DNA from: a virus
Reading direction: 5' to 3' (one strand)
DNA: 64,000 bases
Virus record (IMG/VR): IMGVR_UViG_3300046522_000297
Span: 1-64,000 of that record
The translations under genes and the position numbers were made by a program. Positions 43,089-57,061 of the stretch are shown here, piece after piece. The number at the start of each line of letters is the position of its first letter. Within the stretch, counting starts at the first letter, position 1. The notes beneath the pieces were generated by a model that was given only the letters and a program-made list of their open reading frames with translations, ran no database searches and had not been told where the DNA came from.

Positions 43089-43227
43089 AATTAAAGGACT
43101 TTGTCCCTAGAGCATGGTAAATTCGGCACGCTCTCTAAAGTACCAGACCCGACCTCGTATGCGCCCATCATGGCCTTGTCGTAAAGACAGAGTAGTGGTA
43201 GACTAGGCAGAGGCTAGTCAGATTTAT

Positions 43228-43303
43228 GGTTCCTTAGCTCAGCTGGTAGAGCAAGATCCTTACAAGATCGAGGTCGGCGGTTCGATCCCGTCAGGAACCA
43301 CCA
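43228..43303 (+). tRNA. tRNA-Val(TAC)
   Basis: GATC CTTACAA GATC, CCA. Confidence 0.93.
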
Positions 43304-43312
43304 AGTTTCAAA

Positions 43313-43388
43313 GGGGGTATAGCTCAGTGGTCAGAGCAGAGGCTTCTAAACCCTTGTGTCCGGAGTTCGAATCTCCGTGCCCCCACCA
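43313..43388 (+). tRNA. amber suppressor tRNA (anticodon CTA)
   Basis: GGGGGTA/TGCCCCC acceptor, GCTC..GAGC D arm, loop TT-CTA-AA (CTA 43346-48), CGGAG TTCGAAT CTCCG, A73-CCA; C31:C39 mismatch. Confidence 0.88.
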
Positions 43389-43397
43389 AATTTCAAA

Positions 43398-43499
43398 CAT
43401 AAAATAGCTCAGAGTCCCGAATTGACAGAGCATTCCCCGTGAGGCTGAATCAGACGGGAGAGGTCGTTGAGAGACATCAGGGGTTCTCAACTTTTATGA
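43398..43499 (+). ncRNA. tRNA-like RNA A (expanded D, anticodon and T loops; no CCA)
   Basis: CATAAAA/TTTTATG stem, TA-GCTC..GAGC, CCCGT..ACGGG arm, AGGTC, GTTGAGA..TCTCAAC. Confidence 0.6.
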
Positions 43500-47771: not shown

Positions 47772-48973
47772 GCTTAAACATTGAAAACGTAAAAGACTGG
47801 ACCGAAGGTGTGCCAGTTGAGCAACAAGCAATTCAGCAACTGCGTAATATCGCAAGACTGCCGATTTTAGCCGGACACGTCGCTGTTATGCCGGACGTTC
47901 ATCTGGGTAAAGGTGCAACTGTTGGATCTGTGATTCCGACCGTGGGGGCTATCGTCCCTTCGGCCGTTGGGGTGGACATCGGCTGTGGCATGGTCGCAGT
48001 TAAAACCACGCTGAAAGCAACGGACCTTCCGGAGTCCCTGTCGGGTATTCGCTCAGCGATCGAGGCGGTGGTACCGGTAGGTTTTAACTACCACCAGAAG
48101 CATCTGAGCTTCAAGTCCAAAGGTCTTCGTGGCCTGGCTATCGATCGTAAGTTGAAAGCCTTGGACGAACGCTTTGACAAGCTGCCAATCCTGAAGCGTT
48201 ACAAGAACTTCGATTACCGTCGGGCCTGGAACCAACTCGGCACTCTCGGGGGCGGCAATCACTTCATCGAGATCTGCCTGGACGAAGACAACAACGTCTG
48301 GGTAATGCTTCACTCCGGATCTCGTAACGTTGGCAAAACCATCGGCGAGATCGCAATCAACATGGCTAAAGAGATCGCTGCGAAAGCTGAGATCGGCCTG
48401 GTTGACAAAGAACTGGCCTGGCTTAACGAAGGCACTACCGAGTTCAACGAGTACGTAGAGGGACTGCAATGGGCTCAGGACTACGCTGCTCTGAACCGGG
48501 ACATCATGTTGTTCCATGTCATGGAAGTGTTGGAGAAAGAATTCAAACGTGACATCTGGACCAACGACCACGCAATTAACTGTCATCACAACTATGCAAA
48601 CATCGAAGAATACGGCGGAAGAAAAGTCTGGGTTACCCGCAAAGGAGCTGTTAGTGCAAGACTTGGACAGCTTGGTATCATACCTGGGAGTATGGGTGCA
48701 AGGAGCTACATCACCCGAGGAAAAGGAAACACGGATTCGTATTGCAGTTGCTCTCACGGAGCTGGGCGCGTCCTCTCTAGAACCGCCGCTGCCAAAGTCT
48801 TCACCGTCGAGGATCTGAAGAAACAAACCGAAGGCGTTGAATGTCGTAAAGACGTTGATGTCCTCGACGAGATTCCCGGTGCTTACAAAGACATCGACCT
48901 GGTAATGGAAGCCCAGAAAGATCTCGTGGACAAAGTTCACACCCTGAAACAAGTAATGTGCATTAAAGGTTAA
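47768..48973 (+). CDS. rtcB: RtcB RNA ligase
   Basis: MPDVHLGKG, VGVDIGCG, GTLGGGNHFIE, LHSGSR, CHHN, RKGA, PGSMG, SHGAGR, DEIPGAYK. Confidence 0.97.
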   Translation: MSLNIENVKDWTEGVPVEQQAIQQLRNIARLPILAGHVAVMPDVHLGKGATVGSVIPTVGAIVPSAVGVDIGCGMVAVKTTLKATDLPESLSGIRSAIEAVVPVGFNYHQKHLSFKSKGLRGLAIDRKLKALDERFDKLPILKRYKNFDYRRAWNQLGTLGGGNHFIEICLDEDNNVWVMLHSGSRNVGKTIGEIAINMAKEIAAKAEIGLVDKELAWLNEGTTEFNEYVEGLQWAQDYAALNRDIMLFHVMEVLEKEFKRDIWTNDHAINCHHNYANIEEYGGRKVWVTRKGAVSARLGQLGIIPGSMGARSYITRGKGNTDSYCSCSHGAGRVLSRTAAAKVFTVEDLKKQTEGVECRKDVDVLDEIPGAYKDIDLVMEAQKDLVDKVHTLKQVMCIKG

Positions 48974-55343: not shown

Positions 55344-55351
55344 TGGTATAA
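55344..55351 (+). promoter_or_regulatory. phage promoter motif
   Basis: TGGTATAA TAAC AGTG + hairpin AACAGTG..GGAAC/GTTCC..CACTGTT. Confidence 0.7.
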
Positions 55352-55418
55352 TAACAGTGTGAGGAACTTTAATGTTCCTTGCACTGTTCAAATATAAACC
55401 TCAAATTTTAGGATTAAC

Positions 55419-56081
55419 ATGGCGAAAGTAAAAAAATCAATCACCCGTCTGTTGGCAGAACGTAAAGCCCTGGAAGATCGTATCAACAAGGCTACTTCGG
55501 TGCCCTTCATCGGTACCATGAAAGGTACCCGCACTCCGACTGTGGTTGGCTACACCGGCCATGGCGTTGAGCAAATCTCCAATCTTTTCAAGGGAAACCT
55601 GGACAAAGTGCGGGGTCTGATCAGTTATCACAACCGTATCACTGCGGCTCTGGTGGAATCGAACGCTACCACCAAGGTCAAGATTGGTGAAGAAGAGCTG
55701 ACCGTCGCTGCAGCTATCGAGCGCAAGAAGTCGATTCAATTCGACAAGCGCCTCCTGGCTACACTGATCAATCAGTCTTCGCAAGTTCAAGGTCAACTCG
55801 ATCTGGCAAACCGTCAGGTTGAAGAAATGATCGAACGCCAGCTGATCAACATCTATGGTTCTGGTGACAAGGCAAAGCTGACTGCGGACCAACGCAAAGA
55901 AACCGAAGATGCGATCCGCGCCCAGCATCAACAGGCCCCGATCGATCCGAACAAGATCGCTGACCTGGCTCGTGCTGAAATGGAGCGCATCAGTAAGTTC
56001 GAAACCGAAATCGACTTTGTCCTGTCGGAAAGTAACGCCAAGACGGAAATCGAGCTCGACGACGAGACTCCCGTAGCCTAA
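55419..56081 (+). CDS. coiled-coil protein resembling the DIP1984/DUF6847-like family
   Basis: ITRLLAERKALEDRINKA; AALVESNATTKVKIG...TVAAAIERK; EIDFVLSESNAKTEI. Confidence 0.6.
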   Translation: MAKVKKSITRLLAERKALEDRINKATSVPFIGTMKGTRTPTVVGYTGHGVEQISNLFKGNLDKVRGLISYHNRITAALVESNATTKVKIGEEELTVAAAIERKKSIQFDKRLLATLINQSSQVQGQLDLANRQVEEMIERQLINIYGSGDKAKLTADQRKETEDAIRAQHQQAPIDPNKIADLARAEMERISKFETEIDFVLSESNAKTEIELDDETPVA

Positions 56082-56088
56082 AGACTTC

Positions 56089-56455
56089 TGCCACACCACA
56101 TTAGTTGAACCATAACCTGACGAACAGGTGATCATCCGGTTCAGGGCCGAGAACTAAAAACGGCCAACCTAAGCCCCCTAAGAAGGGCTGCCTAAAGATA
56201 ATGGAGCTCTTCACTGAGCAATCGACTTCTAATCGATCCGTATATAATGCATATACTTTAAATTAAAGTCAACGTTCATTACCTCAAAGGTCAAAGGTTA
56301 AAGCTCAAACTTCAAGCTATCATAAGTTTAAAGTTAAAAGCTCAAGTATTACAACGCTCTTTCAAACCCATGGTTAACGTTTATGAGGGTTCAGGAATAG
56401 CCTCTACTTGTACGCATGGCTGTCAGCGTTGTGGTTCAACTAATGTGGTGTGGCA
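56089..56455 (+). ncRNA. candidate ~370-nt ncRNA closed by a 28-bp terminal stem, with internal 7-nt repeats
   Basis: 56089-56116 pairs with 56428-56455 (one G.U); internal hairpins; nine YYAAAG-like units 56284-56348; followed by a terminator. Confidence 0.75.
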
Positions 56456-56457
56456 CA

Positions 56458-56487
56458 GATCCCTAGTTTCGACTGGGGATTTTTTTT
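56458..56487 (+). terminator. intrinsic terminator
   Basis: ATCCCTAGT TTCG ACTGGGGAT + T tract. Confidence 0.85.
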
Positions 56488-56508
56488 AGCTCAATTAAGC
56501 TCATCCGT

Positions 56509-56518
56509 TTTGGTATAA
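56509..56518 (+). promoter_or_regulatory. phage promoter motif
   Basis: TTTGGTATAA GATT AGTG directly before a tRNA-like element. Confidence 0.75.
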
Positions 56519-56524
56519 GATTAG

Positions 56525-56593
56525 TGTCATGTAACTCAGCGGTAGAGTGCTAGAACCTTTCTAGAAGTCGCCAGTTCGATTCTGGTCACGGCC
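56525..56593 (+). ncRNA. tRNA-like RNA with shrunken anticodon loop, no CCA
   Basis: ACTC AGCGGTA GAGT D arm; CTAGA ACCTT TCTAG; GCCAG TTCGATT CTGGT T arm; followed by hairpin CTCCCC GAAA GGGGAG. Confidence 0.6.
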
Positions 56594-56630
56594 TCCCCGA
56601 AAGGGGAGTTTATTTAGTCAAACAGGAGAT

Positions 56631-56936: not shown

Positions 56937-56988
56937 GTTCTTCCCGGTCTAAGGCCGGGCTTTTTTTTAGCTCAATATATTTGTGTTA

Positions 56989-56998
56989 TTTGGTATAA
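56989..56998 (+). promoter_or_regulatory. phage promoter motif
   Basis: TTTGGTATAA GCTA AATG + hairpin GTAAC/GTTAC. Confidence 0.75.
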
Positions 56999-57061
56999 GC
57001 TAAATGTAACAAAGTATCGTTACCTTTTTTTTGGCCAACCGAGCTTATATGGAGACATTAA

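Follow-up and report, generated by a model that had tools for sequence, protein, structure and literature searches.

The stretch of DNA analyzed here (the window) comprises 64,000 nucleotides (nt) of the 114-kb IMG/VR phage record IMGVR_UViG_3300046522_000297. All of it is also contained in a sequencing run from a rhizosphere metagenome, from which it may derive. On the plus strand it carries a gene for a 220-amino-acid helical protein of the phrog_1491 (T5.085) family, followed by a 367-nt non-coding element (56089-56455) that contains an array of seven-nucleotide repeats (heptads) and is called here the heptad RNA, and then by an intrinsic terminator. A first reading of the letters, the original prediction, had described this region as one transcription unit, and the open reading frame (ORF), the non-coding region and the terminator are all in the sequence. 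Only 7 nt separate the stop codon from the closing stem of the element (P1), which leaves no room for a separate promoter. The promoter placed at 55344 held up in part: an extended -10 motif, TGGTATAAT, is present, and related copies of it, TTTGGTATAAG, recur at 56509 and 56989, but no -35 passes the criteria of a sigma-70 scan, so that the scan did not list it. Judged from the sequence, this putative promoter, the gene, the RNA and the terminator are best explained as one expression unit, with the following features, all on the plus strand.

55344-55352, promoter-like extended -10 motif TGGTATAAT, read from the sequence

55353-55388, 5' leader hairpin directly after the -10 motif, an inverted repeat with 18-nt arms, 83% complementary

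55388-55421, five heptad-like units (UCAAAUA, UAAACC, UCAAAUU, UUAGGAU, UAACAUG) over the ribosome-binding site (RBS) and the start codon, read from the sequence

55419-56081, gene for the 220-amino-acid helical protein (phrog_1491, T5.085 family), an ORF

56089-56121, 5' strand of P1, a 28-nt arm (56089-56116) with a CTGAC extension (56117-56121), from the fold and the inverted repeat

56124-56130, 5' strand of helix P2, ACAGGUG, pairing with 56405-56411 and crossing P3 to form a pseudoknot, from compensating changes relative to locus L008

56138-56165, H-type pseudoknot, with S1 at 56138-56142/56151-56155 and S2 at 56145-56149/56161-56165

56172-56256, variable region with four hairpins (56172-56189, 56203-56219, 56221-56237, 56240-56256), from the fold

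56276-56350, tract of about 10-11 heptads (UCAAAGG, UCAAAGG, UUAAAGC, UCAAACU, UCAAGCU and so on to UUAAAGU, UAAAAGC, UCAAGUA)

56359-56436, conserved 3' domain, with AAACCC, P3a, P3b, P6, the 3' strand of P2 and GCUG

56368-56372/56415-56419, P3a, and 56378-56380/56412-56414, P3b, within the 3' domain

56385-56388/56401-56404, hairpin P6, and 56405-56411, 3' strand of P2, within the 3' domain

56422-56455, 3' strand of P1, with GTCAG (56422-56426), a bulged C and a 28-nt arm (56428-56455), from the fold and the inverted repeat

56457-56487, intrinsic terminator, a stem-loop (56457-56482) with an 11-base-pair (bp) stem and a 4-nt loop, then a T run

The closing stem P1 has 28 bp with a single U.G pair, begins at the eighth nucleotide after the stop codon and is prolonged by CTGAC/GTCAG across one bulged C, as had been described. 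A 409-nt stretch folded at -142.2 kcal/mol (z = -8.2), and none of 100 shuffles was as good. The interior had been seen as hairpins and repeats; both are present, but the element also contains two pseudoknot systems, P2/P3 and the H-type pseudoknot S1/S2. P1, P2, S1/S2, P3a, P3b and P6 were all located in the window copy, together with only 3 pairs of helix P7. For a close comparison we used two IMG/VR relatives with 88% protein identity, which are identical to each other over the stretch read (L004:3100-3900). S2 is GGCCG/CGGCC in the window and GGCCA/UGGCC in L004, the first variable hairpin changes from AGCCC/GGGCT to ATTCC/GGAAT, and the last from GTATAT/ATATAC to GTAGAT/ATCTAC. P2 is altered on both strands in these relatives and one extra hairpin is inserted; the heptads are unchanged.

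The 7-nt periodicity of the tract was confirmed by its autocorrelation at lag 7 (0.54), a value that none of 5000 shuffles reached at any lag from 2 to 15, although the units number about 10-11 and not nine as first counted. The same period is found throughout the family: the strongest lag is 7 or 14 in 45 of the 52 phage copies and in all 45 bacterial copies, and the consensus unit reads U, C/U/A, A, A, A, G, U/C. The frequent maximum at lag 14 hints at a unit of two heptads. Upstream of the gene, the heptad-like units over the RBS contain two in-phase pairs in the window copy and could allow feedback by the partner protein. Across 79 loci, however, RBS enrichment was weak, averaging 0.22 compared with 0.06 for control windows, and at least two in-phase pairs occurred in 3.8% of loci, which is too little for a general autoregulatory site, and this candidate was rejected.

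To follow the element outside the window, we gathered homologs of the protein with 30-40% identity from 28 viral loci and 61 metagenome loci, and a covariance model, R1, was built from the 78-position 3' domain. R1 gave a single match in the window, and likewise in the 114-kb record, at 56359-56434 (58 bits, expectation value (E) 1.8e-12). It matched 82 of 92 phage and metagenome loci encoding a homolog, non-seed loci included, always on the strand of the gene and 200-550 nt downstream of it; the misses were mostly on contigs cut short. Matches were also obtained at 74 of the 80 bacterial-genome loci encoding a homolog, all of them downstream and on the same strand, and the 28-kb T5 locus gave one. 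Among 81 genomes of the taxonomic family of Calothrix sp. PCC 7716 (G001), the protein was found in three and R1 in four, including those three. Two of these four matches adjoin the gene. In another (L183:1100-1375) the RNA is complete and all that stands before it of the partner gene is the last ~11 codons (…SNARTNIEIPD), in fusion with a helicase-like frame; the same genome has an intact gene at the end of another contig, so that an RNA following it would be lost. The fourth (L182:1240-1350) is a shortened RNA remnant in a genome without the partner gene. Two gene-adjacent copies, a rearranged copy and a remnant thus indicate that intact RNA copies travel with the gene. An ungapped stem of 12-19 bp, starting 5-35 nt past the stop codon and closing 260-380 nt downstream, was found in about 50 of 58 usable loci, with sequences that vary between lineages. 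The 3' flanks of homologs had been named as the place to check the prediction, and it is there that the closing stem, the heptads and the R1 domain recur.

The protein family was detected by tblastn in 736 phage records, including Salmonella, Escherichia, Pseudomonas, Vibrio, Bacillus and Lactococcus phages. The same layout of gene and RNA is present in Pseudomonas phage COT4 (Otagovirus), Vibrio phage pVp-1 (Demerecviridae) and T5. In T5, the unannotated gap behind T5.085 folds with z = -4.1; the RNA of ~355 nt lies on the minus strand of NC_005859 at 43142-43497 (L097) and is absent from the annotation of the reference record, which lists eight other "stable RNAs of unknown function". Copies on bacterial chromosomes include those of cyanobacteria and the Lysinibacillus group; the Lysinibacillus locus examined (L110) is flanked by genes for a major facilitator superfamily (MFS) transporter and for a TrmA-like methyltransferase. 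The region had no blastn match in 50,697 phage records, literature searches on T5.085, DUF6847, DIP1984 and T5 non-coding RNA retrieved nothing relevant, and the gene-RNA pair was found in no RNA catalogue or paper searched.

Reading 34 copies side by side gave a common order of elements: P1, (C)GAAA, the 5' strand of P2, a P7 strand, the H-type pseudoknot S1/S2, variable hairpins, some 10-12 heptads split by a UUCUU turn, AAAUCC, P3a, UAA, P3b, P6, the 3' strand of P2, P3b', P3a', GCUG and P1'. P7 is formed by a short 5' strand that pairs with the loop of P6; since P2 and P7 cross P3 and P6, the fold is knotted. The interleaved arrangement of S1 and S2 was recognized by eye in T5, pVp-1, COT4 and most loci. 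The structure was scored on an unedited MAFFT alignment of 33 sequences (A4), from which L075 was left out as misaligned. In this alignment 78.9% of the cells were paired, compared with 36.5-43.8% when the partners were slid, the covariation score was 0.526 compared with 0.10-0.14, and 359 cells had changed on both sides compared with 100-130; none of 500 shuffles reached the observed values. The structure had been derived by eye from the same sequences and is therefore somewhat favoured in this scoring. By helix, the proportion of paired cells was 93.4% for P1, 87.9% for P3a, 83.1% for P6 and 81.6% for P7, and all 13 pairs of P1 had changed on both sides. P2 was paired in 70.2% of cells, with changes on both sides in seven of its eight pairs, and S1/S2 in 53-66%; MAFFT partly misaligns both, so that these values are underestimates. 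RNAalifold recovered P1 and P3a unaided from A4 and left the heptads unpaired, with no covarying partner, so that the apparently unpaired state of the tract in the window extends to the whole family. In the best helices G.U pairs outnumbered A.C pairs (75 versus 16), indicating that the functional strand is the RNA, in the same sense as the gene. The selection at the RNA level that had been proposed on the basis of one G.U pair is borne out by this excess and by the covariation. We consider it practically certain that the element is a real, selected RNA coupled to the upstream gene.

A hint of expression came from a 242-nt RNA-seq contig of a plant metagenome, from a ~90% relative, that covers 56259-56450 and ends inside the 3' strand of P1, five nucleotides before the end of that strand. 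In this contig the last variable hairpin takes a third form, again with compensating changes. The RNA runs examined (X12 and X17) yielded short contigs of relatives only, and the parts that they leave uncovered were not counted as evidence.

The window protein matches the phrog_1491 profile (E 5.6e-52; residues 5-214 on profile positions 4-210 of 211) and is 34% identical to T5.085; searches of Pfam and NCBIfam gave no match. The label "tail fiber protein" attached to phrog_1491 and T5.085 was rejected, as the T5 gene has rnh, thymidylate synthase and nrdB for neighbours, and as homologs also occur among non-phage genes on Lysinibacillus chromosomes. The AlphaFold2 model (mean predicted local distance difference test, pLDDT, 89.1) is mostly helical (helices 8-25, 50-84, 96-146, 156-170 and 180-208), with a small sheet to which both termini and a beta-hairpin (86-95) contribute. 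Two conserved motifs resemble each other (SNAxTxVxI; 81-90 SNATTKVKIG and 204-213 ESNAKTEIEL). When four copies were modelled together, the self-association score was 0.53, against 0.00 for the best control. Among proteins of solved structure, those forming pairs of one chain attained this mark in 20 of 30 cases and single chains in one of 23, counts that hold only roughly because the calibration used two copies and other alignments. The four-copy runs agreed in at least 82% of contacts, with a partner pLDDT of at least 79, and in the predicted interface two copies pack symmetrically along their long helices. The model supports self-association of the protein, in the form of a pair and not of a ring such as had been mentioned at first for the DIP1984/DUF6847-like family.

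A likeness to DIP1984/DUF6847 had been noticed by eye and proved to be distant. The DIP1984 structure, 3KDQ, was the top Foldseek match (E 0.11, probability 0.97, template modelling (TM) scores 0.39/0.54, root-mean-square deviation (rmsd) 11.7) and was also matched by profile (E 0.2) over residues 66-139, the core of helix, beta-hairpin and helix; the two proteins have the N-T-x-V...MT-A-A pattern in common. The window protein is, however, ~65 residues longer than DIP1984/DUF6847 and gave no match to PF20935 (DUF6847) at E up to 1. PF20935 matched three of 59 relatives (best E 0.00099), and in the nearest Pfam-bearing cluster of the Atlas DUF6847 is found in 16% of the members. Downstream of clear DUF6847 genes of Bacilli R1 found no match, and L193, a locus of this comparison, has a different closed hairpin. 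It is plausible that the window protein is a distant relative of DIP1984/DUF6847 and not a member of that family.

The window is rich in tRNA genes (19 by ARAGORN, more by Rfam), and the cyanobacterial copies of the gene-RNA pair (Moorena, Calothrix, Tolypothrix, Symploca and others) lie within tRNA arrays of up to 25 genes in 6.6 kb. In four Moorena loci a tRNA is found inside the RNA itself, tRNA-Gln(UUG) in three (L164:3694-3764 of Moorena bouillonii, L160 and L166) and tRNA-Thr(UGU) in the fourth (L163). The nested tRNA lies between the 5' domain of the RNA and the heptads, where it replaces the variable region and the H-type knot. Within the flanks retrieved, which measured 1.5 kb at viral and 3 kb at genome loci, we found tRNAs near the pair at 13 of 24 viral loci, 21 of 27 cyanobacterial-type loci, 9 of 18 other loci (L133-L150, mostly Bacillota) and none of the 35 Lysinibacillus/Solibacillus loci. 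All 366 nearby tRNAs are on the strand of the gene. T-arm-like words (GGTTCGACTCC, GGTTCGAGTCC and GGTTCGAATCC) were seen in the variable regions of L075 and L090, with no ARAGORN tRNA call, and may be tRNA-like inserts. The tRNA region of the window also carries a full-length RtcB RNA ligase gene (47837-48970, plus strand, 417 bits), and the related phages G233 and G234 have RtcB as well. A search of the full records of T5, pVp-1 and COT4 yielded no RtcB, so that the suggested circularisation of the RNA by RtcB was abandoned as a general mechanism. The pseudoknots, the copies on bacterial chromosomes and the link to tRNA arrays all go beyond the original prediction.

A search with Rfam 15 at gathering score, likewise envisaged from the start, gave no family match to the element in the window. 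The models of GOLLD (RF01998) and ROOL (RF03087) had no match at E up to 1 in four loci, or up to 10 in 56060-56500; at E up to 10 this interval gave only MicX (21.6 bits, gathering score 75) and NsiR1 (15.7 bits), both resting on the terminator. The models of RAGATH-27, YrlA and transfer-messenger RNA (tmRNA) did not match the element, and ARAGORN found no tmRNA. GOLLD and ROOL are large, non-coding, pseudoknotted RNAs of phages and prophages, often located near tRNA islands and of unknown function (PMC12286853). GOLLD has a 3' region that is conserved and a 5' region that is less so, sometimes with tRNAs in the linker, occurs in Mycobacterium tRNA arrays, and in many members exceeds 800 nt, while ROOL has no identified protein partner (PMC12286853). 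The heptad RNA is like GOLLD in its conserved 3' domain, its variable middle, its tRNA arrays and, sometimes, a nested tRNA. It is shorter (260-400 nt), differs from both classes in its tract of heptad repeats, and, unlike ROOL, is almost always preceded by one dedicated protein gene.

TRAP on the trp leader and HutP on the hut mRNA of Bacillus are beta-rich rings that act on 5' leaders and control termination, and HutP sites consist of UAG with a 4-nt spacer, a period of 7 nt. The heptad RNA resembles their targets in that evenly spaced short words could each meet one site of an oligomer. In contrast, the phrog_1491 model is a helical bundle with a small sheet, predicted to form a symmetric pair, and the heptads lie inside a closed, pseudoknotted RNA 3' of the gene. 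Available passages on the long tRNA arrays (L-arrays) of cyanobacteria describe embedded or linked protein genes, including rtcB and an HNH endonuclease, and induction under translational stress (PMC8421152). The cyanobacterial gene-RNA pairs lie inside such arrays, and the window phage likewise has rtcB in its tRNA region; these passages of PMC8421152 name neither the phrog_1491 family nor the RNA behind it. Anabaena all4315, reported as chloramphenicol-induced and linked to tRNA arrays (PMC8421152), was considered as a speculative candidate homolog of the partner protein.

We lean, by a modest degree, towards a two-part system in which a self-associating helical protein and a structured RNA form a particle through the heptads. 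Protein and 367-nt RNA would be made from the same transcript, and RNase III may cut the 28-33-bp P1 of the window lineage, freeing the RNA from the messenger. A frame made of the closing stem P1, the P2/P3 pseudoknot, the H-type pseudoknot and the conserved 3' domain would present a single-stranded run of about ten UYAAAGN heptads, to which the helical protein, as a dimer or a higher oligomer, would bind to give a ribonucleoprotein. The tRNA-array setting and the nested tRNAs suggest that its job is most likely linked to tRNAs or translation, or to counter-defence around tRNAs. A more specific form of this proposal is tentative: an oligomer of the T5.085 family may coat the heptads, and the particle may have tRNAs or the translation machinery as its target. 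It might, for instance, hold tRNAs, protect them or serve as their decoy when host anticodon nucleases attack or translation is under stress. If true, it would represent a new class of cellular and viral ribonucleoprotein, present in the model phage T5. Several points weigh against the two-part system. We infer, and do not observe, the contact between protein and RNA; Pfam, NCBIfam and the fold search revealed no recognised RNA-binding domain in the protein; and the predicted symmetric pair would not by itself explain binding to some ten direct repeats. The adjacency of gene and RNA would also be expected if the RNA only regulated the gene in cis. The evidence for RNA expression is one short contig from a ~90% relative, which could be DNA carry-over, and the tRNA link is not universal, as the Lysinibacillus and Solibacillus copies have no tRNA nearby.

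Four other explanations were weighed against the two-part system. The RNA could act mainly alone, in the manner of GOLLD and ROOL and perhaps as a multimer, the protein being a helper (a chaperone or stabiliser) or a separate product and the heptads making RNA-RNA or tertiary contacts. Several pseudoknots, a conserved 3' domain beside a variable middle, a place within tRNA arrays of phages and bacteria and the nesting of tRNAs in the variable region fit this view, GOLLD having been described with the same traits (PMC12286853), as does a protein without a known RNA-binding fold. We nevertheless consider it unlikely, because the gene lies upstream of nearly every intact copy, whereas ROOL is without an identified protein partner (PMC12286853), and because the heptads have no covarying partner. 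An element that begins 7 nt past the stop codon and shares the transcript might instead be a cis-acting 3' untranslated region that controls its own messenger (stability, termination or feedback), heptad binding only setting the level of the protein, and the heptad-like units over the RBS of the window gene would agree with such a role. Those units are rare in the family, however, and 260-400 nt with two pseudoknot systems far exceed the needs of a stabiliser. Moreover, processing of the nested tRNAs would sever the RNA from the messenger, and the rearranged copy retains the full RNA beside only the last ~11 codons of the gene. We judge purely cis-acting control to be distinctly improbable.

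We give a similarly low standing to the heptads serving as a decoy or sponge for a host factor that recognizes short A-rich single-stranded words, or units the size of an anticodon loop (an anticodon nuclease, Hfq, CspA-type proteins, the ribosome or tRNAs), in counter-defence, with the phage protein loading or protecting the RNA. The association with phage and cyanobacterial tRNA arrays and the common strand of all nearby tRNAs are in its favour, and a putative anti-defence role of tRNA arrays is under discussion (PMC12803027). In addition, UCAAA is complementary to U33-A37 of the anticodon loop of tRNA-Gln(UUG), the tRNA nested in Moorena copies, which may be a coincidence; the nested tRNAs differ, being Gln in three Moorena loci and Thr in the fourth. 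No host partner was identified, and the chromosomal copies of the Lysinibacillus group lie in housekeeping-like surroundings without tRNAs. A feature acting at the DNA level, whether an iteron-bearing replication origin or a small mobile element with inverted repeats, would account for a long terminal inverted repeat around an A+T-rich repeat tract (GC content down to 0.29). The long-range and pseudoknot pairs covary, however, the position and strand behind one gene are fixed, and the excess of G.U over A.C pairs fits only one transcribed strand and so speaks against an origin or a transposon. The strand-specific G.U pairs, together with the single copy in the genome, led us to reject this reading, to which we assign a negligible probability.

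The spread of the pair over distant phage groups, cyanobacterial tRNA arrays and chromosomes of the Lysinibacillus group suggests that its function is useful, old and mobile. Despite some seventy years of work on phage T5, its reference record has no annotation for the ~355-nt structured RNA that follows T5.085; T5 in E. coli offers a tractable system for asking what such RNAs do. Among the unexplained large RNAs of tRNA islands the heptad RNA stands beside GOLLD and ROOL as a third class, one with a protein partner, and in its regular heptad array it offers an unusually clean candidate for studies of periodic protein-RNA recognition. The "tail fiber protein" label, which had spread through phage annotation, is corrected by the present analysis.

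Some further observations were made around the unit. The terminator tail GGGATTTTTTTTAGCTCAAT (56476-56495) has a second copy, 95% alike, at 56957-56976, and TTTGGTATAAG follows ~30 nt after each tail (56509-56519 and 56989-56999), which suggests modular terminator-promoter junctions between small transcription units. After the terminator and the first of these TTTGGTATAAG copies, Rfam reports a tRNA at 56525-56594 (plus strand, 38.5 bits) that ARAGORN missed. Its anticodon arm is odd by eye, with a CTAG/CTAG stem and an AACCTTT loop, and its anticodon may be CCU (Arg), position 33 being an A. Another tRNA (43313-43388, plus strand, Rfam 63 bits), called "Pyl" by ARAGORN, has a CUA anticodon and is a possible amber-suppressor tRNA in a phage tRNA cluster. 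Finally, at the Paenibacillus xylaniclasticus locus a skipping-rope RNA (RF02924; L144:4019-4147; 54.1 bits, gathering score 36.7) lies ~80 nt past the 3' domain of the heptad RNA.

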